The position numbers and the translations under genes are program-made. A stretch of DNA of 64,000 nt. It comes from an uncultured Gammaproteobacteria bacterium. GTDB lineage: Bacteria; Patescibacteriota; Patescibacteriia; Magasanikbacterales; UBA922. The DNA lies in assembly GCA_964522405.1 (NCBI GenBank), contig CAZFTR010000001.1, forward strand, positions 4,602-68,601. The letters are read 5' to 3'. Below the pieces are notes generated by a model. The model saw only the letters and a list, made by a program, of their open reading frames with translations, had not been told where the DNA came from and did no database searches. Shown here piece by piece: positions 107 to 62,476 of this stretch (position 1 is its first letter; each line of letters begins with the position of its first letter).

Positions 107-178
107 TGGGTCTGCAAGGAATCGAACCTTGATCTAAAGCTTAGAAGGCTTCTATTCTATCCGTTGAACTACAGACCC
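107..178 (-). tRNA. tRNA-Arg (anticodon TCT)
   Basis: The reverse complement GGGTCTGTAGTTCAACGGATAGAATAGAAGCCTTCTAAGCTTTAGATCAAGGTTCGATTCCTTGCAGACCCA folds as a cloverleaf: 7-bp acceptor stem GGGTCTG/CAGACCC, T-arm CAAGG-TTCGATT-CCTTG, anticodon loop CTTCTAA. CCA is not encoded. Confidence 0.8.
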
Positions 179-218: not shown

Positions 219-1217
219 TCAATCCTGTTGACGATTTTTTCCATGAAATTTTTTATGTATATTTTTTAGTTCTCGGTCAGTAATGTGGGTATATATTTGG
301 GTAGTGGTGATAGAGGAGTGGCCAAGCATGCTCTGCACACTTCGAATATCTGCGCCATTCTGGAGTAAATCTGTCGCATATGAATGTCTAAGTGTGTGTG
401 GAGTTACTGGTTTTGTAATTCCAGCCATTTTTGCATATTTTTGCACACTTCTTTGAACAGATCTGGGAGTAAGCGGTATATCTTCTACAGGTTTTCCAGT
501 CTTGCCACTTACTGTCTTCTGTTTTCCGGTTCTTTTGTCATGAGAAATGAATAAATAGGGATTGATATCATATCTGGCTTCTAAATATTTCTTTATCCAA
601 TATCTGGCTTGCTCTGAAAGGAAGACAATTCTGCTTTTACCACCCTTTCCTCTTATAGTAAATTCTTCTTTTTTGAGGTTTATATCAGTTATTTTTAGCT
701 TAACTAGCTCTGACACACGAAGTCCGGCTGAAAAAAGTAATTCCAAGATTGCTTTGTCTCTAAGTGATATTAATTGCTTAGCAGAGGCTTTTTTCTTTTT
801 TTCAATTCCGGGGATTCCTTGAATCGGAGCTTCCATAAGTCTATCTAAGTCAGTTCCTTCCAGAAAACTAACTTCTCGATCTGGCATTTTCATAAGTTCT
901 ATTTTTTCCGGAGCCAAAGTCTCTACATCCCTTTTGGCTAGATATTTTAAAAATGATCTAACAGCTATAAGATGGTAATTTTGAGTATTTTTTTTGAGAG
1001 GGTCTCCATGAACATCAATAAGTCTATTGAGCCAAAGTCGATATTTACGTACTTTTTCTGCAGTTATAGCACTTGGTTTTTTATTTTCGCCAAGCCATTC
1101 AAGAAATCTGCTTAAATAAAAATGATAATTTTGTATAGTCCTATCACTACGATTTTTTTCAATTTCCAGGTATTCAAGAAATTCTTTTAAATAAATTTTC
1201 AGATTTTTTTCTGGCAT
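219..1217 (-). CDS. tyrosine site-specific recombinase, XerC/XerD-like
   Basis: The C-terminal catalytic region HTLRHSYATDLLQNGADIRSVQSMLGHSSITTTQIYTHI gives the R..H..R..Y signature of phage-integrase/Xer recombinases. The N-terminus has a SAM-like core-binding domain. Confidence 0.85.
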   Translation of the reverse strand: MPEKNLKIYLKEFLEYLEIEKNRSDRTIQNYHFYLSRFLEWLGENKKPSAITAEKVRKYRLWLNRLIDVHGDPLKKNTQNYHLIAVRSFLKYLAKRDVETLAPEKIELMKMPDREVSFLEGTDLDRLMEAPIQGIPGIEKKKKASAKQLISLRDKAILELLFSAGLRVSELVKLKITDINLKKEEFTIRGKGGKSRIVFLSEQARYWIKKYLEARYDINPYLFISHDKRTGKQKTVSGKTGKPVEDIPLTPRSVQRSVQKYAKMAGITKPVTPHTLRHSYATDLLQNGADIRSVQSMLGHSSITTTQIYTHITDRELKNIHKKFHGKNRQQD

Positions 1218-1413: not shown

Positions 1414-4400
1414 ATGAATAGGCTTGAAAAGAAAACAAAGCCATTTTTGCATATCAGTGCATTTCTAACTGCTGCAGCATTTGTGGTTGCCTTTGCTTTT
1501 CTTTTTTCTGATCTTCATGCAGTAACTAAGACTTGGGATTTTGATAGTGCTTCAGATTATACCTTTGATGCAGATTATCTAAAAATAACAGATGGAAAAG
1601 CAGGGTTTGTGACATTTGATCAAACAGACGATGATAATACTCAAACAGGTTTTGGTGGTGGTACACACACAGGTACAGGCTGGAGTGCCAGTAATAACAG
1701 TCTGGGTATAGTTACCGGTACAGTTGCTCTTTATTGGAAATTTGATGAGGTAAGCGGAAATTTAGTCACTGATTCGTCCGGTAGTGGTATGAATGGAGGC
1801 TTGAATCAAAGTGATGGTTTTGATAATAACTGGGTTTTAGGAAAGTTTGCTAATGCTTTTGAATTTGCTAGCTCAACAAGTGAATCATTTGTAGCGCCAA
1901 CCTTTAATACTAAGCCAAATAGCGAACTGTATACCTCTGATATTTTTAGCGTTGCGCTTTGGGTTAGGTTAGATGAGTTGGTTGATAATAATTTTATTGA
2001 TTTATTTCATCGTATCAGCGGTGGAATTTCACGTTTGTACATGAGAGTCCAACCTACTCATAAAATAAGTTGGTCCATATGGGATGGAAGTCCGAATTGG
2101 AGTGGTTTGGTGGGGAATACTACTATTGAAATTGATAATTGGTACTATGTTGTTGGTACATATGATGGGGAAAATTTAAAGCTCTATATTAATGGTGAAT
2201 TAGATGGTTCAATGGCTAATTCCAATGGGATTGAGCAGTTTGATGGTAATAGAATCGCTGGTATAGCAACTATTACAGGAGGTCCTTATGGCGCAACTCA
2301 ACATTTGGATGGAATAGTTGATGATGTTCAATATTATTCTCGCGCCCTAAGCACAGAAGAAATATTGCATAATTACATCAACAGGCCCCCAGCCCAGCAA
2401 GGAATATTTGAATCACGTGTCATGAACAATTACGCAGCATCTTACTGGTGGTCATTAGCATGGAATCCAAAAGCTCCATATGGCAAAGAATTGCCAGATA
2501 ATCCACGTATGGGATTATTGATGCATTTTGATGAGGCAAGCGGAAGTACTGATTTTATCGATTCTTCAAGCGGTGGTAATTTAATATCATGTTCTGGCAC
2601 TTCTTGTCCGCTAACCGGCATAGCAAGTCAGCTTAGTACAGGCGCATATTTTGATGGAGTAGATGACAAGCTGGTTTTTAGTAATAGTCCTACATATAAT
2701 GCTGATGAAATCAAAGATTTTTCATTTAGTACATGGGTAAAGTCTGATTTGAGTCAGAATGGTTTTCATGTTATTGCTTCCGGAGGTTTATCTGATAACT
2801 CTGGCTGGAGTGTCTATACTTACAAAACTGCAAGTGGTGCTGAAAACGTGTATTTTGAAATAGCAAGACCTGGATATACAACTCAATACAAGATACGCGG
2901 TGTCAGTACACAAGATGATAGGTTTGTTTTTATTGGAGGTACCTATGATGCTAGTACTGATGAACTCATTATTTACAAAAATGGTAGTGGAATCGTTGGT
3001 TATGATTCAGCTGGAGCATTAACACAGGCACCTGGAGATGTTTTTGAAATTGGACAAAGAGCACTGCATTCCGGTTTTTCGGATTTTCCCTTCAGAGGTG
3101 TTATAGATGAATTTACGATTTACAATAAAAAGCTTTCAGATCAAGAGATGAGAAATCTATTTGTAGCCCAAAGACAAGGGGCTGCCATGTTGGACGACAA
3201 TGCACCTGATCGAGCTTTAGTGCTTCATATGAATGAAGCAGGAGGTAGTTCGGCGTTTAAAGACAAATCATCTTATAATAATAGCGCCTCTTGTTCTGGT
3301 AATACATGTCCTGTAGCGGGTGTAGAAGGACAAGTTGGCACAGCTTTGAAGTTTGATGGCGTTGATGATTATGTAGAGATAAGTGGTAGTAGTTTAGAAA
3401 TTTCTGATAAATTAACAATGGGTCTCTGGGTAAAACCGGAAACTAGCGGCTCGCATAAACAATTGATAAGTAAGAATCCGGCACCTGGCTCAGTGTCAAG
3501 TTATTATTTGTCATTAACAGCGCTAAAACCATGTGTTTGGCTTGGTCAAAACATGGTGGGTTGGAAATGTTCCATTAGTGCCGTACCTCTTAATGAATGG
3601 TCGTATGTTGCTGCAGTATTTGATGGTAGAAGTTTGAGAATTTATATCAATGGTGTTTTGGACAAAACATATAGTGGTCTAAGTGGTGTTATACCTACAA
3701 ACCCGGGTACATCAGTATGGCTTGGAAATAGACCTGATCTTTCCGGATATATGTATAAAGGTGGAATGGATGAAATAACCATATTCAGCAAAGCACTTTC
3801 CGCAGAAAAAATTTTAAATATATATAATGAACAAAAAATAGGAAAATTGGGATTGGAAAATATTGCCAGCGATCGCTCATTGGAAACAGCACAATACAGT
3901 GCAAGTGGAGCTAACATGACAGATAACGAATTATTATTGCATTTTAATGAAGCTTCATACAGTGGAACAGTAGATGAAGTTGTAGATAAATCAGGAAATG
4001 AGAATCACGGATTAGTGGTTGGAGGAGGCGATACTGTTGCCTATGGAAAATTAAATAGAGCAGCAAGTTTTGATGGAGTTGATGATAGTGTAACCATTGC
4101 TGATAACAATACCCTGGACACCAAGGAATCTGATTTAAGTATCGAAGCATGGATTAAACCGGAAAACGTTTCACAGGCCGGATATATCGTAACAAAACGT
4201 CTAAATGAATCTCCATGGACACAATGGGGCGTGGGAATATTTGATGGTAGTACTAATTATGGTTCAGGAAAGAAATTAGTCTGTACTTTCGGTTTAACCT
4301 CAGGTAGTGGTAGTTATTTTCATGATGTGGTGACAGTTGATGATATATTAGATGGGGATTGGCATCATGTAGTTTGTCGTGTTGATTATGGTAATAACAT

Positions 4401-7400
4401 AGAAGTATTTGTAGATGGTGTAAAAGTGGATACAAACATTATAAGAGATCAGAGTTGGACATCTCTTGAAAATGATGAACCAATTACAGTGGGTTCTGGG
4501 AATGGCGCCTTTTATTACAAGGGTTTAATTGATGAAGTTGCTGTCTATAGTCGTGCTTTATTGGATGAAGAAGTCCTAGATAGATACAAACGTGGGGCTG
4601 TTCGTGTTAAGTATCAAATTCGCTCATGCAATGACAGTGCTTGTGACGGTGAAACATATATGGGGCCGGATGGAACAGCAAGTACATATTATTCAGAATT
4701 ACAAAATAGTTTTTATTCAACTCCGGCCATAGGGCTTGCGAGTGTTCCGAATAATACGTACTTTCAGTATAAGGCAATATTTGAAACAGAAAACGCTTCA
4801 TATTTACCAGAAATATCATCAGTAACAGCAGGCCCAGATCATCAATCAATTGGTACATTTGAATTGATGCCAGCTAAGGCGTCAGCAGTATCATTTGCAA
4901 ATATAGACAGCTTCACAGATCAGGATGTTGGATTGATTACCGGTATAAATGATCCAGTGCCATACTACCAAATAACAAACCAAGGTGATCAAGAAATGCC
5001 TTCTTGGTATTTTTGGAATGGTTCAAGCTGGGCACAAACTTTTAACCCGGATGATTCCAATACTGAGTCAGAAATAAATACAAACATATCACAATTTTCA
5101 ACAGACATTGGAACTGGAAAATTCCTTTGGAAAGCATTTTTAAAAGTTATAGAAGCAGCAAAGAGTCTCAAGTTGTTCCAAGTAGAAGTAGATTACAATG
5201 CGCCTCCTACAGCTAATGTACTTGAAACAAAAGGGTCAGCAGTATATTTTGATGGGGAGAATGATTATATAACAATTCCTGATTCAGAAGGTTTTAATTT
5301 TGCAGGAAAGACGGCAAGTGTAGCCTTTTGGTTTAAGGTGCCTAATATTGAAATAATAAATCACATGATTGATCGTCAGGAGGGTGGATATCCTGGAGCA
5401 GGTTGGTATATAGGAATAAGACCAAATGGTAGATTGCACATAAATCATAGAGCCACAGATGACACTATTAATCTTTACTCAACAGCTCTTGTCAACGATA
5501 ATCAATGGCATTTCGGAGTGATAACCATTGATTCAGCTGATAATTTAGCAACAATGTATGTGGATGGAGTATTAAACTCAACCGATACCTTTGAGGGATT
5601 GATAGATAAAAATGATTCTTTCTTTATTGGTACTACTGGTGGTGGAAATTCGTCATATTATTTTAAAGGTTCAGTAGATGAAATAGCTTTTTATAATTAC
5701 AGTCTTACTCAGGAAGAAATAGACTTGTATTACAATTCAGGTAATGGCAGACGCGGTTTAGCTTCGGACAATGGATTAATTTCTGGTTGGAATTTTGACG
5801 AAGGAGCTGGAGATACCGCAAAAGACTATGGAATAAATGCCAATAATGGAGAATTATACAATGGCGCAACTTGGGTTCCAGGAAAGATTTCAGAGACAAC
5901 AAATATGTATGGTCCATATCCATATTTTTCAAGTATCTTTAATGATACCAAAGATAGTTATAAATCAGCACTTAGTTTTGATGGTGGCGGAGGATATGTT
6001 GAACTGGGAAAGAAGTTAGACGAAGAAAATATTACGGTTTTAGCTTGGATAAAGCTGGATGAACATAATTATTTTAATTATATAACCAGTAATTCCAGAG
6101 ATTGTTGTGCTAAATACGATGGGGATGAACTTAAGGTCAATGAAGGTGGTAGGCTTAGTGGTAGGATTTGGAATAATGATCCTGCAATTAGTGATTGGAA
6201 TTTAGTTAATGCAAAACTTGTTTCAAATCAGGTTTTAGCACTAGATACTTGGTACCAAGTAGCCTTTACATATGATGGCTCAACCATGGCTCTTTATGTG
6301 AATGGTGAACTTGATAATACTAAGGCCTCTACTCTCGGTATTGGTCAACCGTCTTCGTTTAATAGAACAATTGGAGCGATGGCAATGAGTCCGCATAATT
6401 ATAATTTTAGAGGTGATCTAGATGAGGTATCAATTTATGATCGTGCTCTTACAGCAGAAGAAATAGCAACTCATTATAACGGCGGTAATGGAAGATATGG
6501 TTTGGCAACAGATAGTGGATTAATAGGAGGTTGGCATTTTTATGAAGGTGCTGGAAATGCTGTGCAAGATTATAGTCCATACGGCAATCATGGAACAATA
6601 AAAAATAGTCTAGAATGGACCACAGGAGTTGTAAATGATCATGATTACGCCAACAAAGCTCGCATCCAAGTAAGTACAGATCCAAATTTTGAAAATATTA
6701 CTCACTGGGATTCAGGAGTTGAAGGTACAACACTTCCAAATTTTGTAGTTGCTTCTGAAAGATCAAAAGATATCAAATATGGCTCTCTTGGAAATGGTCC
6801 AATAATAGATTCGTTTAGTATGGCTGATGGGGACATTACCTATTATTGGCGTATAAAGTATTGGGATCATCATGGAGCAGAGGGAATATGGTCAGCTACA
6901 AGCAGTTTTACTATGCTTGACGCACCGGTTGCTCCTGGATCTGTTTCTGCTGCTAGAGTGTCAGACAATGAATTTACAGTTGGTTGGCAAGATCTTTCAA
7001 CTACAGAAGATAAATTTGTTTTAGAAAGAGACTACACACTCGGCGCTGGTGGATTTATGGGTTGGCAAAAGCTTACGGATTTAGCTCCAAACATAACCAA
7101 TTATACAGATAGTTCTACAGAAGTTGATTCAAAATACAAATATCGAGTAAAGGCAGTAAACCAAGCAGGTGAGTCAATTTATACAGAAGATCCGATAGAG
7201 CATTTCACCTCACCAAAGGCGCCTACCAGTGTAAGCTCAACCTATGATGGAGAAAATGCATTTACTGTTTCTTTTACTGATACTTCAGCAATTTCAAATA
7301 TACACGATGTAGAGAGATGTGATGATCAGATTTGTGACAATAATATCTATATGGCTGTAAGTGGTTCACCTGTTTCCACCTCGACTTTTCAAGATGCAGG

Positions 7401-10826: not shown

Positions 10827-10900
10827 TTTTCTAAAAAAATTATAAACAGTCGCATTTCAAATGTGACTTTTTTGCTTTTAAAAACTATTACTTAAAAATT

Positions 10901-10972
10901 GCTTCGCCGTCCTCGCCTCTCTTGCTAATCTGCTTTCAGCATTAGCAAGGAGTCTGCGGATTGTCTCATCAA
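10901..10972 (+). repeat. copy 1 of a ~70-nt conserved intergenic element (candidate structured-RNA motif). The other copies are at 36644-36712 and 62304-62372
   Basis: Conserved 5' flank gcttcgccgtcctcgcc, a hairpin with stem CTTGCTAAT/ATTAGCAAG and constant loop CTGCTTTCAGC, and conserved 3' flank ctgcggattgtctcatc. Confidence 0.6.
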
Positions 10973-11039
10973 TCTTTAAGTAATACTTTTTAAAAGCAAA
11001 AATAAACTATATCTTGACCCAGCACCATAAGCCAGAGGG

Positions 11040-17703: not shown

Positions 17704-19329
17704 TCAATCCAATATGCCATCTGGGAGTTGTTTTTTTATAGAATTTTTATTTTTTAACAAGTATAAAGTATTATTTGGGTTCCAACCTTTGATTTTTTCT
17801 TGCTCAATAACGTCAAATCCTTCGATCGGAGAAAAACTCAGAGCATAATCAGAAGTATTATTCACAAAAACATGACGTATCCACCACGGGCTACCAACCG
17901 GACCATGGGTTTTGTCTGATTCCTGAGCCGACCAGTAAGATTGGAATCCATTCCATTCATATCCAGCATCAATATGGTAAGTTTCCAGATCTGATTTAAA
18001 TAAAATATTTTCAGCCATATTCCATCTGGTTTTGTTCCAATTCATATAAAATGAAGTTTGACTAATGCTAAATATGGCAAAAATTAATAAACAAGTTCCA
18101 ATGGCAATTTTCGATATTTCTTTTTCTTGTAATTTTGCAACTAAAAGGATTGAAATCACAAAGAAAATTGGTAGAAAATATCGATCAAAACTTACAAATA
18201 GTAGAATTGGAATTAAAAATAAAATTCCAAAGAGATATACAAAATTTAACTCCTGTTTTTTTTCAGTTTTGTTTCTTAAAATCATGTAAATCAACCATCC
18301 GGCACTGGCAGCAGATATAATGGTGATAATTCCCAGAATTTTACTCGGAATAAGAGATGTGAATTCACCTCGCAGAACTCCCTGCATCGGTCCAAGTCCA
18401 TTTAGATTTATGATATTTGCTACATAGGGAAATTGCAGTAGTTTAATTTGTCTTATTAGGATCGCAATTATAATTGGGATAAGGGTGGTAGCCAAAAGCA
18501 ATTTGTCTTTGATTTTATTCAAATTTTTAATTCCCCAAGAAATAGAAAAAGGTAAAACAAAAAAACCAATATAAACAAAACTATACCAGAGCCACCAGAG
18601 CCCATTTATCAGAGTTTTTTTCAATCCAGGAATTTCATGGAGAGTAAAAGTATCTGGCAGAAAACCATTTTTCCATAAAAACCAATAAATTAGACAACCG
18701 AGAATTGCTGGGATGCCATAACTCCATAATAGGTTTTTGAATTTGATGTTTTTTAATTGTGTTAGAGAATAAATTCCGGCTGCAATCATGGCAACAATAT
18801 TTGTTTGTCGTGTATATGTTCCAAGAACCACGACAAGTCCAGCAAATAGTAACCAAATCGCTTTTTTGCTTACAAATCCTCTGTAGTACAGGTAAACAGA
18901 TAAGACAATGAAGAAGAGCCCGGGAATATCTGTCATAAAAGTAAAAGACAGATTATAGAAAATTGGATTTAGCCAGATTATTAGCGCAGCAAATAAGGCG
19001 AGTTTTTGTTTTTTGGTTATTTCAGCAATTAATTGATATGTAAGTAGAAGTGTTGCAAGAGACAGTACTAAAGTTGAAATACGTAGAGCAGAAAAAGAAA
19101 AAGTAAAAATTTTAGAAATGCCAACTCCAATAAGAATTGGCACATAAAAAGTCGGTCCGGCAAATGGATTCATGCGAAATTCACCAGTATTTACCCAGTG
19201 TTTGATAATTTCAGAGTGAACCCAGTCATCGTTCAGTGCAAATTCTCCGATTGGTGAAATAAAAACAAATTGGAGTAGAAAAAGTCCAATTATGATTAGT
19301 TGATATTTGTATTTTTTTAGGAAGTGCAT
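17704..19329 (-). CDS. polytopic membrane protein with a C-terminal soluble domain, possibly an ArnT/PMT-like glycosyltransferase
   Basis: Ten or more hydrophobic helices. The true start is taken as MHFLKKYK at 19329; the tracked ORF's first 66 codons read through the GC-rich repeat and look spurious. The family assignment is tentative. Confidence 0.5.
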   Translation of the reverse strand: MHFLKKYKYQLIIIGLFLLQFVFISPIGEFALNDDWVHSEIIKHWVNTGEFRMNPFAGPTFYVPILIGVGISKIFTFSFSALRISTLVLSLATLLLTYQLIAEITKKQKLALFAALIIWLNPIFYNLSFTFMTDIPGLFFIVLSVYLYYRGFVSKKAIWLLFAGLVVVLGTYTRQTNIVAMIAAGIYSLTQLKNIKFKNLLWSYGIPAILGCLIYWFLWKNGFLPDTFTLHEIPGLKKTLINGLWWLWYSFVYIGFFVLPFSISWGIKNLNKIKDKLLLATTLIPIIIAILIRQIKLLQFPYVANIINLNGLGPMQGVLRGEFTSLIPSKILGIITIISAASAGWLIYMILRNKTEKKQELNFVYLFGILFLIPILLFVSFDRYFLPIFFVISILLVAKLQEKEISKIAIGTCLLIFAIFSISQTSFYMNWNKTRWNMAENILFKSDLETYHIDAGYEWNGFQSYWSAQESDKTHGPVGSPWWIRHVFVNNTSDYALSFSPIEGFDVIEQEKIKGWNPNNTLYLLKNKNSIKKQLPDGILD

Positions 19330-19441
19330 ATTGTAAATGCTTGTCTCGCCCAAAGGATGGGATCCCGTCCAGTGAAAATTGGCGGGAAAAGGCTTAAAAA
19401 GCCTGAGAGATGACAGCGCTGTTATCCATAGTCTCCATTGT

Positions 19442-19520
19442 CGCCCATTCCACGTTCGCCGACAAGGGACTAAGAACAGGCGGCGCGCGAGCACCAGCCA
19501 GGCGCGTGTTGATTTACCAG
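19442..19520. repeat. GC-rich 79-nt perfect direct repeat, copy 1
   Basis: Sequence cgcccattccacgttcgccgacaagggactaagaacaggcggcgcgcgagcaccagccaggcgcgtgttgatttaccag is identical to 19875-19953. It is about 60% GC in an AT-rich context. Confidence 0.9.
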
Positions 19521-20209
19521 CCACCACCTTTGTTGTCTCTGCGGTTGGCGATGTGACCTGACAACGCCAGAGGCCAGACGATCCAGGCGATGAGAGCCGG
19601 GAAGCTCAGAACTTCCTCCCTCGGCATGGGGTTCCGCCTCGACTTTTCCATGCCCAGGTCTTTGGCGATGTAGATCAGGGCGAAAATGCCCAAGAACAGG
19701 TATCCGGCCAGGATACTGAGAGCAATCAAATCACTGGTGCTCAAAACCTTTCCTCCTTTCGCGGTTTTGCAATGTTGATTATAACAGTAAATAATTTTTT
19801 TTTCTATGGTTGGTTTCCAAATAAAAACCCTCCTTTTTAAGGGGGTAATAATGGTTAAAATAGTTCCCTTTCGCCGCCCATTCCACGTTCGCCGACAAGG
19901 GACTAAGAACAGGCGGCGCGCGAGCACCAGCCAGGCGCGTGTTGATTTACCAGTCTCCTTTTTTTTCTTCTTTTCGTCTCTGATCTCGATCAGGTAGCCG
20001 GCCAACATGAAGGGGCCTGCCATCAGCCCGAAGAGCCAGATCATGACACCGAATTTACTGGTGTCGGTGGGATTTCTTTCTTCTTCGCCCTTGCCGTGGT
20101 CACCGGTGACGTACAAGAGGGCGCCGAAGCTGAGGATGGCGTAGCCCCCGACCAGGCTGAGAATCATCAGGGCAGTGCTCAAAGTTCTCTCCTTGTTGCG
20201 ATTTTGCAA
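19514..20209 (-). CDS. GC-rich tandem pair of paralogous small two-TM membrane protein ORFs (A ~19955-20194, B ~19514-19754), fused in one frame through an A8 tract
   Basis: The halves LSTALMILSLVGGYAILSFGALLYVTG... and LSTSDLIALSILAGYLFLGIFALIYIA... are clearly homologous. Each is preceded by a conserved leader, atcaaYattgcaaaaYcgc, then AAGGAG, then TTG. Half B stops at the TAA inside the 79-nt repeat (cTGGTAAatc). Half A is out of frame by one base within an A8 run (19959-19966) and reads through. Confidence 0.4.
   Translation of the reverse strand: MQNRNKERTLSTALMILSLVGGYAILSFGALLYVTGDHGKGEEERNPTDTSKFGVMIWLFGLMAGPFMLAGYLIEIRDEKKKKKETGKSTRAWLVLARRLFLVPCRRTWNGRRKGTILTIITPLKRRVFIWKPTIEKKIIYCYNQHCKTAKGGKVLSTSDLIALSILAGYLFLGIFALIYIAKDLGMEKSRRNPMPREEVLSFPALIAWIVWPLALSGHIANRRDNKGGGW
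19875..19953. repeat. GC-rich 79-nt perfect direct repeat, copy 2
   Basis: Exact 79/79 match to 19442-19520. It is followed on the minus strand by a terminator-like hairpin, ccccctTAAAAaggaggg plus a T-run (19822-19846). Confidence 0.9.
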
Positions 20210-20325
20210 TATTGATTCTAGCAGGAAATAAAATTATTGTCTACTTTGCTTATAAAGAAAAAAGCCTCACCCTAGAAAAGGCGAGGCATAGTTTTTACTA
20301 TTGTTCACTGTTTATTGATCATTGC

Positions 20326-22456: not shown

Positions 22457-22591
22457 AATATATTGTTTATATTTAACTAGAAAAAATACTGTGATTATAT
22501 TGTAGCATAGAGATAGTTTGTGATAAAGGGAGTTTATGATTAGGTGAAATTGTGTTATAGTTTAACCAATATCGACTACATGGGGAGATGT

Positions 22592-22756
22592 ATGGTTTCC
22601 AGGTTGGGAAAGGAGCCGGTGGTGCTGGTCAAGGTTGTCTGGGGCGGGCTCAGCCCGGAGGATATTGCGGTTTACCGTCAAATCGCTAGGGACACAGTGG
22701 AGCGTTCCAAGCAAAATCGCTGCCATGGATGCGGCAGACCAAAGAAGGGGGAATGA
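22592..22756 (+). CDS. GC-rich small ORF (54 aa), possibly the product of a ~260-nt GC-rich transcript; could instead be a non-coding RNA
   Basis: A TG-extended -10 (tgtTATAGT) near 22545-22556, SD GGGGAGA 5 nt before ATG 22592, and an intrinsic terminator at 22795-22822. The protein MVSRLGKEPVVLVKVVWGGLSPEDIAVYRQIARDTVERSKQNRCHGCGRPKKGE has no recognised family. Confidence 0.35.
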   Translation: MVSRLGKEPVVLVKVVWGGLSPEDIAVYRQIARDTVERSKQNRCHGCGRPKKGE

Positions 22757-22794
22757 TGGGGGGCGCCACTCCATCTCGGATTGGCAAACTCGAA

Positions 22795-22822
22795 AAAACA
22801 TGAGAGAATCATGTTTTTTTGA
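22795..22822 (+). terminator. intrinsic terminator
   Basis: aaaaaaCATGAgagaaTCATGttttttt. Confidence 0.65.
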
Positions 22823-22843
22823 TATTAAATTTATCAAAACAAA

Positions 22844-22868
22844 AAAACAGCTTTTGCTGTTTTTCAGT
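22844..22868. terminator. bidirectional intrinsic terminator, likely ending the convergent minus-strand GC-rich gene
   Basis: aaaaaaacAGCttttGCTgttttt. Confidence 0.55.
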
Positions 22869-22959
22869 ACTTCCTAAAAATTCAAAAAAAATACTAAGGA
22901 AGGGGTGGGGCGGAAGGAATCACGGCGGGAGTCGCTGCGATCATCGCCCCGAGGGGGGA

Positions 22960-23631
22960 CTAGGCATCGATGGCCTCGAAGATCTGGGATCTGGGGCGGT
23001 CGGGGAGGGCGCGGGGCATGGCGTCGAGGGTCGTCATGTCCGCGTACCAGGCCTGCATGTAGCCGGTGGGACGGTGTTGGTCAGCGCTCGGCGCCGAGGC
23101 CTGGGCTCGGCTCTGGAGCAGGACGGCATTGAGCCGTTCCGGGTCGTTCTGGAACATCCAGAGCAGGAACTTCATCTGAAGCGCCTCCTCCTGGCTCATC
23201 TGGGGGATCTGGCCCGGACTGACCTTGGAGATCCGCTGACCCATGGTACGGAACAGGCCGTCGGCAGCCCTCAGCGCGGCCAGACGGTGCATCATGTTCT
23301 GGTTGTCCGGTTCCACCACTTGACTGCTCTCTTCGAGCGAAGCCCGCACCTTTTCCGGAATCTCTTCGCCGGCGGTTTCGTTGCCAGTGAAGATCAGGCG
23401 GTAGCGTGTCCGTTGACCCACGGGGATCTCGAGAATCAGTGCCAGCGGCGGGTTTTGGGCGATGGTGTACTCCAGGTAACACTCGATCATGTTTTCCGGA
23501 TCCTTGACTCCGGAGTCAGGGGGCTTGCTGTCTTCGTACGACTTCATGGCATTGTGCCAGTGCCAGAGAGTCAAGAAGAAGCCCAGGATCAGGACTGTGA
23601 TGAGGAGAGTCAGGAGGGTGAGAGAGTCCAT
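22960..23631 (-). CDS. GC-rich hypothetical protein with an N-terminal TM anchor (224 aa)
   Basis: Start MDSLTLLTLLITVLILGFFLTLW is preceded by AAGGAGG. Amino-acid composition is protein-like, whereas the overlapping plus-strand ORFs are G/R/L-rich antisense artefacts. About 58% GC. Confidence 0.55.
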   Translation of the reverse strand: MDSLTLLTLLITVLILGFFLTLWHWHNAMKSYEDSKPPDSGVKDPENMIECYLEYTIAQNPPLALILEIPVGQRTRYRLIFTGNETAGEEIPEKVRASLEESSQVVEPDNQNMMHRLAALRAADGLFRTMGQRISKVSPGQIPQMSQEEALQMKFLLWMFQNDPERLNAVLLQSRAQASAPSADQHRPTGYMQAWYADMTTLDAMPRALPDRPRSQIFEAIDA

Positions 23632-23759
23632 ATCGTGCCTCCTTGAGGCTTCCGGTTCTAGTCTGTTCAGTATTGTTGTCTTTTTTTGATAAAAAGTCAA
23701 GTCTGGAGTTTAGATTGACAAAACAACAATTTTGTCCTAATATGGGTATACAATTATAA

Positions 23760-27176: not shown

Positions 27177-27679
27177 AATGGTGGTTTTTATGATCGCGCC
27201 ACACCGGAATTCACAATAGTTTATAAAATCCGGTGTGGCGGCGCGATCAAGTGTCTGTTCACGAGGTTGTTGTCCCTCGTTTACCAGAATCAATCCACCA
27301 CCTCTCCCTTATTTACTACTAACGCTCTTCTGGCGCTTTCGTTTTATTCTCGATAGGGAGCTGTTCTAATCGCGTTGCACGATCAGTCTAACGGGTACAG
27401 CCATGAACGGCTTCACGAACAGGCTGTTCGTATCGATCCAAACTGTTCCTGCATTGCACAGAAAACGACTGGTTTCGCGCTTTTTTGTGTGCGCGTGCTT
27501 CAGTCTCAGAATGATCGGAGTGGGTTCTTGCCGGGGTAGGTGCTACAGTCAATATATCTTGCCTTGGAATGAAGTCGAACCGGGCTTCAATCTTTGGTTT
27601 GATACTCGTGTAGAGCCTTATTCAGTCGTTCGGGTGACTGTCACACGTAGTAGGATCAGATCCTCTACGGTGCTGGTAG

Positions 27680-28141
27680 CTATCGCTTGCCGTACTTTTT
27701 ACGCAGGCTGCGACGCTCGATTTCGCGCTCCAGGAGATCCACCGCTTTTTTGGCTTCCTTGAGCCACCAGTGGCGGATGTCATGGATGTTGCCTTCTTTC
27801 AGGCACTTCCAGAGGAGCCAGAGCCAGTACTGGGTACCGTCTTCTTCGCCGTAGATCAGCGTTTCGAACGGTTCGGGGAGGTTGAAGCCCCCGTCCTTGT
27901 GCTCGGTCATCTCGAATCCCTTGTCGCCATTCTCAACTGCTGCGGCGACCAGGTCGACGAGTCTGTCCTCTCTGCGGTAGAGCTGTCTCTCCTCGCGCAT
28001 GACAGCGAGGAAATCAGTCCAGTCCTCCATGTACGCGGGGACGTAACTGAGGAACTGCTCACTCATCTCACCCACCCAGTGCTCGTGCCTATCAGCAACG
28101 AATTCCGTGTAGGAGAGATCCAAAAACTCTCTTCTATCCAT
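27680..28141 (-). CDS. GC-rich hypothetical protein (153 aa)
   Basis: Protein-like, Trp-rich acidic sequence. SD GGAG lies 7 nt before the ATG, and the 5' leader has a GC hairpin CCCCGGC-acggg-GCCGGGG at 28162-28180. About 57% GC. Confidence 0.55.
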   Translation of the reverse strand: MDRREFLDLSYTEFVADRHEHWVGEMSEQFLSYVPAYMEDWTDFLAVMREERQLYRREDRLVDLVAAAVENGDKGFEMTEHKDGGFNLPEPFETLIYGEEDGTQYWLWLLWKCLKEGNIHDIRHWWLKEAKKAVDLLEREIERRSLRKKYGKR

Positions 28142-28569
28142 CTAACACTCCGAAGCTACTGCCCCGGCCCCGTGCCGGGGAGCTCCGAGATCTCTCTCGG
28201 TTATATCTAGCAAATTTTGCAAAATATAATCGAGAGAGATTTTTGAGTTTTAAATGTCAGCTTTCAAATTATACAAACGAATTATATAATTTGGAACTGT
28301 CCCGAGGCTGAAGCTTCGGGTGAGTTTCTGGCGCTGTTGCGACCTGAGTCGCGAGGCGCAGTTGGTCTTGCTCTTAGAGTGTTGGGGGAGCTGATTGACC
28401 CTACCCCTTCTACTGATTTCGAACTTGTCGCACAGCCGGTTTTCTGGCTCTCTACCTACTCAATTGCCAACTCGTGGCATCCACATCTAGATTTCCCCGA
28501 AAGTTCAGAGAAACTCTCGGTCCACAGGAGCGGAGTTAAATCCGCATCTTCATCGATTAGAAATCGATG

Positions 28570-28872
28570 CTACTTGCTTCCCTCCTGGTGTTTCACCAGA
28601 CGTCGATGGACTTTCTCATCGGCGTAGTCCAGCTCGAGTCGGAGCATCGCGTCCTCGAAGGAGCTCAGCGCTTTCTCGACGCTGTCCGGCGTCGTCGTCT
28701 CGGTGGTGGTGATCGACTGGGAGATCGGATCGGCCCATGCATGGAGGATGCGCGTGGCACGTTTTCCGTACTTGTGGCGCGCGCCTTCGGGCATGTTGCG
28801 CATGACAGAGGTCAGTCGGTTCTCGAGCGCCTCGAGACGGACCTGGAAAAGATATTGCTCGCTTTTCTTCAT
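28570..28872 (-). CDS. GC-rich hypothetical protein (~100 aa; start ATG 28872 chosen by analogy to its paralogous leader, alternative GTG at 28893)
   Basis: A leader paralogous to the 153-aa gene: hairpin CCCTGGt-aaagg-GCCAGGG, then gcagtRgcttYggag, then 7-9 nt, then ATG. Confidence 0.45.
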   Translation of the reverse strand: MKKSEQYLFQVRLEALENRLTSVMRNMPEGARHKYGKRATRILHAWADPISQSITTTETTTPDSVEKALSSFEDAMLRLELDYADEKVHRRLVKHQEGSK

Positions 28873-29111
28873 CTTTCTTTTCTCCAAAGCCACTGCCCTG
28901 GCCCTTTACCAGGGAGCCCAAGAGATTTCCCTTGGTTAAGCGAAAAAAGCAGATAACCGCTTAAATTAGGCAAAAGCCTAAATTTTCGCTAAATCAAGGG
29001 AAATTTCAGTGAATTGTCAATAACGGCTAACAATTAATTATAGCAGGTTTTGACGGTTTTGTCAATGAGTGGTAAAATTAGATAACGACTTCAAAAATTA
29101 ACTAAAAAATT

Positions 29112-36582: not shown

Positions 36583-36643
36583 ATATGTTTTTATATTTAT
36601 TTCTTCTTTGGTTATAATTTTAGAGTATATTTTATTAAACTAG

Positions 36644-36712
36644 CTTCGCCGTCCTCGCCTCTCTTGTTGATTTGCTTTCAGCATCAACAAGGTGGCTGTG
36701 GATTGTCTCATC
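36644..36712 (+). repeat. copy 2 of the ~70-nt conserved intergenic element
   Basis: gcttcgccgtcctcgcctct-CTTGTTGAT-ttgctttcagc-ATCAACAAG-gtggctgtggattgtctcatc. The stem carries compensatory changes relative to copy 1. Confidence 0.6.
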
Positions 36713-36805
36713 TACTTTAATAAAATATACTCTAAAATTATAACAACTGATTTCAATAAAAAGGGATCTTATTAGAATCATCCCGCCTATATTGTAGTTT
36801 GTAAA

Positions 36806-45966: not shown

Positions 45967-46093
45967 GGTAGTTTTTGTAAAGCAAAAAACACCCCAAACC
46001 AGGGGTGTTTTTTAATGAGTGAGAAAGTTGTAAACAGATTTGAAATTGAGATTTGTTTCTAGCTTTTTGACAAAAAAAGGAGGTGGCTAGATT

Positions 46094-47086
46094 ATGAGAT
46101 TTGGTCTTGAGGCTGAATTTCTGCTCGAAAACATCAAGGTCGATCAAGCGTTGGAGCTTGGGATCCCTGGTGTGACGAGAGAGTTCTTTGACATGATGGT
46201 GGAAGTCGTGACTGGCATCCATCAAACAAGGGGAGAAGCAGTAGAGGAGCTTCGCGATCGTACCATTGCCTTGCAGAGGGGTGGGGCAGTGCTTCATCCA
46301 TTTGCTTCGCATGCCTTTGGTGATCCCTGGGACAGGGTGGGGTTTGAAAGTGTGACCGGAGTAAGCGACTATTACCGTTGGGTGTACTACGTAGCTTGCC
46401 AGAATCCGCTTGAGCTTCACCACGTTGGGATCCACATCAACGCTTCTCAGGCTGGGTTGGTGGGTGACGCACTGATTCATGCCACTAACTGGTTGCGCTG
46501 CTTGAACTTCTTGTTCATTTTGCTCGGTTCCAACTCTCCGCTTCAGCGAGGTTTGCCTTCAGGATGTCTCTCCAGGCGTTCTTACTTCTATCCAAACCGG
46601 TATGACGTACCGCTTTGGTGTGGAGAGGCTAGTTTCAGAGCCTGGGTGCGGCAGGAGGAGGCTCTCGGCAAGATCTATCCTGGAAAAGCGCGTTGCTGGA
46701 TGTCGGTTTGCCCTCGGCTCGAGGGCGATAAGATCGATTCTGAGCTCGAGAGGATTGAGCTCAGATCGCTCGACAGTGGTGCCAACCTGTCGTGGGAGGT
46801 GCTGGAGGGATGTTGTCAGCTCCTCGAGCGCATTGTGGTCTACTCAGGCCATGGTTCAGAGCTCCCTGTTGACATTGATCAAATCCAGTTCAATGACAAG
46901 GCTGTAGCTCGTCTTGGCCGGCAAGCAACGCTCTTGTTTGAGGGTCGGAGCCGTCAAGCAGAGGAATTGGCCAGGTATTGGTGTCAGGGAATTGAGTCGC
47001 TTGAACAAGTTCTGGACTACGGTTCACAGGCTGAAAAAATCCTGAACCAGATCCAGGATTCTGGGGTCCAAACCCAAAGGAGGTAG
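46094..47086 (+). CDS. GC-rich carboxylate-amine ligase, glutamate-cysteine ligase family 2 (GCS2/YbdK-like)
   Basis: The N-terminal MRFGLEAEFLL block matches the GCS2-family ExE start. 330 aa, about 58% GC against ~35% in the flanks. Strong SD AAGGAGGTG. Confidence 0.5.
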   Translation: MRFGLEAEFLLENIKVDQALELGIPGVTREFFDMMVEVVTGIHQTRGEAVEELRDRTIALQRGGAVLHPFASHAFGDPWDRVGFESVTGVSDYYRWVYYVACQNPLELHHVGIHINASQAGLVGDALIHATNWLRCLNFLFILLGSNSPLQRGLPSGCLSRRSYFYPNRYDVPLWCGEASFRAWVRQEEALGKIYPGKARCWMSVCPRLEGDKIDSELERIELRSLDSGANLSWEVLEGCCQLLERIVVYSGHGSELPVDIDQIQFNDKAVARLGRQATLLFEGRSRQAEELARYWCQGIESLEQVLDYGSQAEKILNQIQDSGVQTQRR

Positions 47087-47199
47087 AGGAGGGGCGGGAG
47101 TGTGAAGGCGCTCCCGGTTCCCAAAATTATTTTATATATTTAAAGTAATTTAGGAATTTAAAAGTTGACAAAATATTTGAGATAATGTAATCTCAATAT

Positions 47200-62259: not shown

Positions 62260-62303
62260 ATGTTGTTTTGACTTTTTGCGTTTGATTTTTTCTCTAAATC
62301 CTC

Positions 62304-62372
62304 CTTCGCCGTCCTCGGTTCTATTGTTGATCTGCTTTCAGCATCAACAATGTGCCTGCGGATTGTCTCATG
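62304..62372 (+). repeat. copy 3 of the ~70-nt conserved intergenic element
   Basis: ttcgccgtcctcggttct-ATTGTTGAT-ctgctttcagc-ATCAACAAT-gtgcctgcggattgtctcatg. The stem is again kept by compensatory changes. TGACTTTTTGC lies upstream, as in copy 1. Confidence 0.6.
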
Positions 62373-62476
62373 ATTTTTTAGAGAAAAAATCAATATAATT
62401 CATAAATTTATTCTACTACACATTTCAGAGATCAAATATAGATCTTTCAGCTATCTCCGAAGATGGATGCCCTGCG

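Follow-up and report, generated by a model that had tools for sequence, protein, structure and literature searches.

The 64-kb stretch of contig CAZFTR010000001.1 analyzed here (the window, to which all coordinates refer) contains a GC-rich island of about 0.9 kb (19330–20260) between trxB and a gene encoding a PMT_2-family glycosyltransferase (the PMT gene). The island consists of two homologous transcription units that lie in tandem on the minus strand with a period of 433–437 nt, and the genes found around it by Pfam are trxB, rpe, rpiB, PMT_2, and PfkB. In 200-nt bins, the GC content was 0.575–0.59 over the coding sequences and repeats of the two units (19400–19700 and 19900–20200), dropped to 0.405 in the AT-rich DNA that separates the units, and was 0.33–0.37 in the island flanks. 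Both the GC-rich island in an AT-rich genome and the two tandem minus-strand units had been described in a first-pass annotation of this DNA, and that description is accurate apart from small details.

Each unit comprises a sigma-70 promoter with an extended −10 element, a conserved leader, a Shine-Dalgarno (SD) sequence, a TTG start codon, a gene for a two-helix membrane protein (P1 in unit 1 and P2 in unit 2), and a 79-nt 3′ element (Table 1). The leader sequence ATCAAYATTGCAAAAYCGC was found exactly twice in the 64 kb (20198–20216 and 19761–19779) vs. 0.14 occurrences expected, and the 63-nt promoter and leader region of unit 1 was 73% identical to that of unit 2. The leader conserved in both units and the two TTG starts were thus recovered as first described, whereas the SD sequence AAGGAG, reported for both units, was found in unit 1 but is replaced by AGGAGG in unit 2. 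The unit-1 promoter sits just downstream of the trxB terminator (20264–20287). Unit 1 has a clear intrinsic terminator, unlike unit 2, which is followed only by a weak terminator-like hairpin, and the spacer between unit 2 and the PMT gene contained no promoter of its own for this gene.

The P1 and P2 proteins, of 76–78 residues, are hydrophobic, with two helices and a charged, basic C-terminus. They are 33% identical (BLASTP E-value 2e-11), and the AlphaFold model of P2 is a helix-loop-helix (H3–31 and H42–72, pLDDT 69), in agreement with the earlier proposal of paralogous small membrane proteins with two helices. The GC content at codon positions 1/2/3 was 0.49/0.37/0.79 in P1 and 0.50/0.45/0.75 in P2, a periodicity specific to the proposed frame, whereas the third-position GC content (GC3) of trxB, the PMT gene, and ileS was 0.24–0.27. 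The foreign composition proposed for the island is therefore also visible in its codon usage. In the codon alignment of the two genes, identity at positions 1/2/3 was 0.41/0.61/0.40 vs. 0.27/0.27/0.34 expected by chance. Second positions are conserved and third positions are at chance level, with synonymous sites saturated, which indicates old paralogues under selection at the protein level. P1 and P2 are genuine protein genes with a codon usage foreign to their host.

Table 1. Features of the island between trxB and the PMT gene, listed in the direction of transcription.
Feature	Coordinates	Strand	Remarks
Unit-1 sigma-70 promoter	20215–20243	−	−35 TAGACA, 17-nt spacer, extended −10 TGcTAGAAT; 10/12 matches
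Unit-1 5′ leader	20183–20214	−	conserved ATCAATATTGCAAAATCGC; SD AAGGAG at 20189–20194, 6 nt before the TTG at 20182
Read-through ORF (P1, linker, P2)	19514–20209	−	231 aa; exists in the A8 state; a 217-aa protein is called in the NCBI assembly
P1 gene	19947–20182	−	TTG at 20182; 75 frame-0 codons to the AAG at 19958; P2-like end GGA GAC TGG TAA (19958–19947) needs a −1 shift or A9
A8 tract	19959–19966	−	in-phase heptamer A_AAA_AAG at 19964–19958; one base short of the in-frame length
79-nt element, copy 1	19875–19953	−	CTGGTAAATCAAC...GAATGGGCG; 100% identical to copy 2
Unit-1 intrinsic terminator	19818–19843	−	CCCTTAAAAAGGAGGG followed by a T-run; precedes any frame-0 stop of P1
Unit-2 promoter	19778–19806	−	−35 TAGAAA, 17-nt spacer, TGtTATAAT; 10/12 matches; contains the A9 tract (19795–19803)
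Unit-2 5′ leader	19745–19777	−	conserved ATCAACATTGCAAAACCGC; SD AGGAGG at 19752–19757, 7 nt before the TTG at 19744
P2 gene	19514–19744	−	TTG start; 76 aa (19517–19744); TAA stop at 19514–19516, inside the repeat
79-nt element, copy 2	19442–19520	−	100% identical to copy 1
Spacer, unit 2 to PMT gene	19330–19441	−	18-bp palindrome GATAACAGCGCTGTCATC at 19409–19426; weak hairpin AGGCTTTTTAAGCCT at 19390–19404; PMT ATG at 19329

P1 and P2 belong to no described family. A word-indexed search with P2 gave no match, an exhaustive search of 1.84 billion representatives with a HMMER profile of P1 and P2 recovered the fused open reading frame (ORF) itself and nothing else, and neither Pfam, PHROGs, nor NCBIfam contained a matching profile (PADLOC was not searched). 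Relatives of the two proteins were also absent from a tblastn-confirmed scan of IMG/VR, the AlphaFold hairpin had no PDB match below an E-value of 5 in Foldseek, and tblastn and short-word blastn detected no further copies in the window or in 31 related loci that were fetched. A reading of the island as structured non-coding RNA was rejected, given that Rfam gave no match to it, either at the gathering thresholds or in an E-value search, that both unit mRNAs folded no more stably than shuffled sequences (z −0.3 and −0.9), and that the GC3 periodicity was strong.

As first reported, each unit ends in the same 79-nt element, the two copies being 100% identical. The element starts with CTGG TAA and gives P2 its last Trp codon and its stop codon. 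In unit 1, this TAA is out of frame as assembled. A 30-mer from the element occurred twice in the window vs. no occurrence expected. The first-pass annotation had recommended looking for the repeat at other loci, but no further copy was found in the window or in the 31 related loci, and an exact 24-mer from it was absent from GTDB representative genomes, JGI metagenomes, and IMG/VR. With the whole island as the query, blastn likewise found no match in phage or plasmid collections. A dispersed repeat or miniature inverted-repeat transposable element (MITE), defined by many copies at unrelated loci, was rejected on these grounds, the source genome being represented in the search by the window.

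The promoters and leaders of the two units are 73% identical and weak similarity extends approximately 15 nt past the 79-nt element, which suggests that the whole unit was duplicated and that the 79 nt were homogenized or are under extreme constraint. As the adjoining coding sequence is saturated, the identity of the two copies is not residual similarity from the duplication and calls for either gene conversion or constraint at the nucleotide level. Gene conversion between the two copies appears to be the most economical explanation, and the conserved sequence is probably functional in the 3′ untranslated region (UTR). Folded as RNA, the element showed no excess stability over shuffled sequences, and no promoter was found in it on either strand. 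One forward frame only of the repeat is open (GKSTRAWLVLARRLFLVPCRRTWNG), and it continues through the unique spacer in phase into the next gene, from copy 1 into P2 and from copy 2 into the PMT gene. In shuffles, the first (130-nt) spacer was open by chance at a frequency of 0.02 and the second one at 0.16. These values, which were computed after the observation, do not yet include the one-in-three phase factors, and we treat the in-phase frames as a lead and not as evidence.

The authenticity of the island was examined by an exact-protein look-up with the window TrxB, which returned two Logan contigs from different sequencing runs. Both contigs run from trxB across its terminator into unit 1 at 100% identity. 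One of them, L001 (SRR8146441), carries an identical P1 sequence, reaches the A8 tract and shows eight A residues there, and ends 30 nt into the 79-nt repeat, as expected for a de Bruijn assembly, which should break inside an exact repeat. The same contig also spans the next GC-rich island, with its 223-aa ORF, and part of ileS. These reproduced junctions show that the boundary between AT-rich and GC-rich DNA is no binning or chimera artefact. A chimeric or contaminant junction, raised at first as grounds for discarding the island, was thus rejected by the recurrence of the trxB/unit-1 junction in contigs of two runs. The possibility of a sequencing error in the A8 tract, raised in the same place, lost ground as well, since the tract recurs in one Logan contig and is no random assembly slip. 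No contigs were recovered when P2, the PMT protein, and the 217-aa fusion were used as exact-protein queries, and the unit-2/PMT junction, the tandem order, and the A9 tract are therefore without independent confirmation.

The A8 tract puts P1 one base out of frame and joins it to the second unit, as the first-pass annotation had it, and the read-through ORF was confirmed. Across the tract, the frame-0 codons are AAA AAA AAG, the continuation of P1 beyond it reads ...KKKKKETGKSTR, and frame 0 stays open for 71 codons until it enters P2 in frame, having crossed the repeat, the terminator of unit 1, and the promoter of unit 2. A ninth A residue or a −1 slip would give GGA GAC TGG TAA, i.e., a P1 ending in ...KKKKKGDW*, which parallels the ...GGGW* end of P2. 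Since no in-frame stop precedes the unit-1 terminator in the sequence as assembled, terminated P1 transcripts would be non-stop mRNAs.

In the whole window, 18 A/T runs of at least eight residues were counted and a single one of at least nine. This A9 run spans the −35 element and the spacer of the unit-2 promoter. Two of the 18 long runs fall within the 0.9-kb island vs. approximately 0.25 expected (Poisson P ~0.03 by our own arithmetic). Phase-variable simple sequence repeat (SSR) loci are marked by a tract in a coding sequence or a promoter whose length sets expression and by length polymorphism of this tract within or between populations. The island has tracts in both positions, the A8 tract deciding the frame of P1 and the A9 tract lying in the promoter of unit 2. 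With one tract that sets a reading frame and another between the −35 and −10 elements of an adjacent membrane protein paralogue, it recalls homopolymer contingency loci such as the poly-A promoter spacer of Mycoplasma Vlp and the coding-tract switches reviewed in PMC2831843, but the tracts of the island are short and no length variation was observed in them. Phase switching by the A-tracts, suggested by their clustering in the island, is plausible.

Alternatively, P1 may be a fresh pseudogene that arose by a 1-nt deletion in an A9 tract, with P2 as the sole functional copy and no regulatory role for either A-tract. Reduced genomes accumulate homopolymer frameshifts, and the frameshift was present in both assemblies that cover the tract. 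Runs of eight are also common in this genome, as the count above shows, and the P2 coding sequence has no tract at all, which all fits a pseudogene. The remainder of P1 is nevertheless intact with regard to GC3 periodicity, SD sequence, start codon, and promoter, only its last three codons being affected, and the longest homopolymer of the window lies in the neighbouring promoter. We therefore consider the decay of P1 to be a serious but rather unlikely explanation.

It was also considered that A_AAA_AAG acts in programmed recoding, either as a dnaX-type −1 frameshift site or as a site of transcriptional slippage, so that both P1 (ending in GDW*) and a P1–P2 fusion are made. Ribosomal −1 frameshifting of the dnaX type was reportedly described by Tsuchihashi and Kornberg in 1990, and Tamas et al. 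are said to have found in 2008 that poly(A) transcriptional slippage rescues frameshifted genes in AT-rich endosymbionts. P1 shares with these systems the same heptamer, of the X_XXY_YYZ type and in the correct phase, and one additional A would restore the ancestral C-terminus of P1. The −1 frame ends three codons later exactly like P2, frame 0 is open for 71 codons into P2 through a spacer that was open in few shuffles, and from repeat copy 2 this frame likewise leads in phase into the PMT gene; these frame statistics, however, were computed after the observation. The canonical stimulators of dnaX are lacking, as no hairpin was found 5–9 nt downstream of the heptamer (the first one predicted is approximately 18 nt away and has shuffle-level stability) and no SD-like element (GGAG) approximately 10 nt upstream of it. 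In addition, the paralogue P2 has neither a slippery site nor any tract in its coding sequence, and a terminator separates the two coding sequences. Programmed recoding thus seems very improbable to us.

The gene order at related loci was found to be rpiB-rpe-trxB-PMT_2-102aa-PfkB-ATP-grasp, with trxB and the PMT gene adjoining each other, 52–137 nt apart, in L003 (52 nt), L027, and L033/L034. These relatives, in which trxB lies directly beside the PMT gene, indicate that the island is an insertion, and the non-native origin assigned to it at first is borne out by its absence from them. Their gene content also excludes P1 and P2 as accessory subunits of the PMT_2 enzyme, as relatives with the same enzyme lack the P1 and P2 genes. 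L028 has no PMT gene. The closest TrxB proteins that carry a source name were mostly labelled Candidatus Magasanikbacteria, in support of an assignment of the window to the candidate phyla radiation (CPR). The TrxB of OZ246405.1, a record labelled Gammaproteobacteria, groups with those of Magasanikbacteria, and this label is probably wrong. Islands acquired by horizontal gene transfer are frequent in Patescibacteria (PMC12455944).

Other relatives hold different cargo in the slot between trxB and the PMT gene. In L004 (7000–7480), it contains an AT-rich two-gene module, the second ORF of which is RelE/YafQ-like as judged by eye. In L026, it contains a TrmB regulator, a GC-rich hairpin-array RNA of approximately 540 nt, and a YgjV-like gene. 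In L031, whose TrxB is 76% identical to that of the window and which is thus a closer relative, it contains three unrelated ORFan cassettes on the minus strand (3200–6600) with 55–72% GC, encoding 237, 173, and 384 aa and separated by AT-rich spacers. Two of the L031 cassettes share an 84-nt promoter and leader module with the promoter TTGACA-17-TGcTATACT (GCTTGGTCTGTTA) that is 74% identical between them. The coding sequences of these two cassettes are unrelated, and each is preceded by a long 5′ UTR with hairpins. L031 thus appears to reuse promoter modules for the ORFs that it captures. The pattern that stands out is a GC3-rich orphan ORF on an AT-rich promoter of native type.

The hairpin array of L026 (Ga0208373_1000364, 4095–4675, plus strand) comprises approximately 12 hairpins in tandem (YAC-CGNG-NNN-CTCG-TRG), is equipped with both a promoter and a terminator, and had no match in Rfam. 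Its folding (z −7.9) contrasts with that of the island RNAs (−0.3 to −0.9), and it looks like an undescribed multi-hairpin RNA, perhaps sponge-like.

The first-pass annotation had compared the island to a mobile or recombining gene-cassette system and had suggested the repeat as a possible attC-like site. In such a reading, the island would be an integron-like or other site-specific array in which the 79-nt element ends each cassette. The parallels with the VCR/attC arrays of Vibrio are small ORFans arranged in tandem with the same orientation and a highly conserved repeat (60–140 nt in these arrays) after every ORFan, to which the use of the slot as a hotspot for foreign cassettes in relatives may be added. 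By our own reading, an RYYYAAC-like AATCAAC near the 5′ end of the element and a GTTRRRY-like GTGGAAT near its 3′ end each match in 6/7 positions. An attC site, however, is imperfectly palindromic and, as single-stranded DNA, folds along its whole length, with R″ and R′ cores RYYYAAC...GTTRRRY, whereas the element formed no end-to-end hairpin as single-stranded DNA and had no excess stability on either strand (z +0.19 and +0.54), its hairpins being internal and its ends unpaired. The core-like heptamers, 6/7 at best, pair with each other in only 5/7 positions. Integrons further have an adjacent IntI, an attI site, and a Pc promoter with mostly promoterless cassettes, but each unit of the island has its own 10/12 promoter, neither IntI nor attI was found, and in the subset of window ORFs scanned with Pfam the sole tyrosine recombinase was Xer-like, at a distance of 18 kb. 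Promoters and coding sequences alike are homologous between the units, which argues for duplication rather than independent capture, only two copies of the repeat are known, and the cassettes of L031 lack such a 3′ repeat. The island is not an attC-type cassette system, its resemblance to integrons is superficial, and we hold an integron-like origin to be very unlikely.

Membrane toxins of the type I toxin-antitoxin or holin kind, held in check by the TTG starts, by an antisense RNA over the 3′ element, or by the frameshift, are another explanation for P1 and P2. The two proteins belong to the size class of type I toxins and class II holins and share with them hydrophobic helices and a basic C-terminal tail. 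Strong promoters are paired with weak TTG starts, an apparent type II toxin-antitoxin module occupies the same slot in L004, and the unit-2 leader contains a weak (9/12) antisense promoter directed at the 3′ end of unit 1. No antisense promoter was detected that points toward the 3′ end of unit 2, however, and P1 and P2, at 76–78 aa with two transmembrane helices, exceed the usual size of type I toxins. They also differ from toxins and holins by the lack of sequence or profile similarity in the searches described above, of a convincing cognate antisense RNA, and of a lysis-cassette context, and the unit mRNAs have no unusual structure. A class II holin in particular, although compatible with the architecture of P1 and P2, was rejected in view of the missing PHROG and Pfam matches and of the absence of lysin and phage genes in the flanks examined. 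A toxin function seems improbable, though less so than an integron-like origin or programmed recoding.

The island is an acquired islet with orphan small membrane proteins and a homopolymer frameshift, which is a known kind of feature. Among such features, it most closely recalls the morons of phages and small genomic islets, which have their own near-consensus promoter, a single small gene, and a deviant GC content and lie between otherwise contiguous genes. The clear terminator of unit 1 also fits this comparison, unit 2 having its weak hairpin only. Unlike morons, the island is surrounded by housekeeping genes of the chromosome rather than by a prophage, has no PHROG match, and carries its unit as a tandem duplicate with an identical 3′ element. 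The explanation that we favour, and to which we assign about an even chance, is that of a lineage-specific foreign islet that combines an old duplication of a moron-like unit, a homogenized 79-nt tail, and switching by A-tracts.

According to this explanation, foreign DNA entered an intergenic slot, variable among relatives, in a CPR genome of Magasanikbacteria type, and the self-contained moron-like transcription unit that it carries was duplicated in tandem long ago. The anatomy, foreign composition, insertion, coding status, frameshift, and uniqueness of the island are shown directly, whereas gene conversion, switching, and the role of the proteins are inferences. P1 and P2 would then have diverged under purifying selection until their synonymous sites were saturated, while the 79-nt segment would have been held identical by gene conversion, probably since both mRNAs need the same 3′ sequence. 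With A8 instead of A9 in the upstream unit, ribosomes would miss the TAA, and termination of transcription at the unit-1 terminator before any in-frame stop would yield a non-stop product, likely tagged by transfer-messenger RNA (tmRNA), whereas read-through transcripts would yield a P1-linker-P2 fusion. One A gained through replication slippage, through RNA polymerase slippage, or in effect through a −1 ribosomal slip on A_AAA_AAG would restore ...KKKKKGDW*. Together, the A8 and A9 tracts would most likely switch two alternative small membrane proteins on and off stochastically. That P1 and P2 have an accessory role, be it in the envelope, in immunity, or of a toxin type, is a guess, prompted by the accessory modules that the slot collects in relatives.

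Several observations weigh against this explanation. No length polymorphism was seen in either A-tract, and the sole other contig covering the A8 tract also has eight A residues and may derive from the same reads. Tracts of eight and nine residues are short for classical contingency loci, and runs of eight are common in an AT-rich genome. The 79-nt element has no structure, promoter, or motif that would explain a constraint at the nucleotide level, and gene conversion is deduced only from the difference between the element and the saturated coding sequence beside it. The order of the units in tandem is derived from a short-read assembly through an exact 79-nt repeat, at which the Logan contig breaks. 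Finally, P1 and P2 have no homologues in the collections searched, and hence no function proposed for them has comparative support.

Three further GC-rich islands, with a GC content of up to 0.70 in 200-nt bins, lie between housekeeping genes of the window: island 2 (22550–23650), island 3 (27300–29000), and a fourth at 46000–47100. The ORFs 22960–23631, 27680–28141, and 28570–28893, all on the minus strand, have a GC3 of 0.74–0.82. The first encodes 223 aa and had no homologue except itself, and the other two had no family match. The ORF 46094–47086 (plus strand) encodes a divergent GCS2/YbdK-like ligase. Island 3 has a perfect 12/12 consensus promoter (29065–29037, minus strand) and a strong terminator at its end (27176–27148), and weaker promoter matches (9/12) were found in island 2. 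A common origin of the four islands of the window, or of these with the islands of relatives, was rejected, as they share no repeats and no homologous proteins.

Beside island 2, a small GC-rich transcription unit (22560–22822, plus strand) with a −10 element of the TGtTATAGT type and a 14-bp terminator hairpin (22790–22822) may encode a 58-aa CxxC protein; with a GC content of 0.47/0.64/0.59 at the three codon positions, its coding nature is doubtful and it may be an RNA. This unit is identical in L001. Upstream of rpiB, where the window has island 2, L003 (1–4500) and L004 (300–4800) carry 4.5-kb islands with 46–59% GC that encode large orphan proteins, one pair of which is 26% identical between the two relatives. 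The island of L004 also encodes UPRTase-like and PNP/MTAP-like enzymes.

Elsewhere in the window, an AT-rich repeat family of approximately 120–134 nt is present in three copies (10869–11002, 36611–36744, and 62278–62397) with 67–76% identity. Two of the copies consist of 33-nt inverted-repeat arms (94–97% complementary) around a 68-nt loop and are MITE-like or resemble long intergenic hairpins. The Xer-like tyrosine recombinase (219–1217, minus strand), with a Phage_integrase domain and a SAM-like N-terminal domain, lies beside the only tRNA gene of the window (107–178, minus strand), and no link between it and the island was found.

In a wider and decidedly speculative extension, to which we give little credence, fixed slots such as those between trxB and the PMT gene and upstream of rpiB would, throughout the lineage, repeatedly gain unrelated GC-rich ORFans on paralogous AT-rich promoter modules of native style, forming a promoter-equipped capture system that is possibly host-derived. 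Within such a system, the 79-nt element and the A-tracts may serve to switch, delete, or fuse membrane protein modules, as P1–P2 and potentially P2–PMT fusions.

With regard to annotation, the 217-aa protein in the public record is a frameshift artefact and should be read as two small genes. The island provides a junction-verified example of the acquisition and domestication of foreign genes by ultra-small CPR genomes, in which the acquired genes are orphan, GC3-rich ORFs with promoters of native type, placed in a slot that holds different cargo in relatives. The identical 79-nt tail next to a saturated coding sequence offers a test case for concerted evolution or for an unrecognized function of the 3′ UTR. 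If the A-tracts do switch, the island would exemplify a contingency locus acting on membrane proteins of an episymbiotic CPR lineage, and the resulting surface variability could matter for host attachment or for escape from phages.

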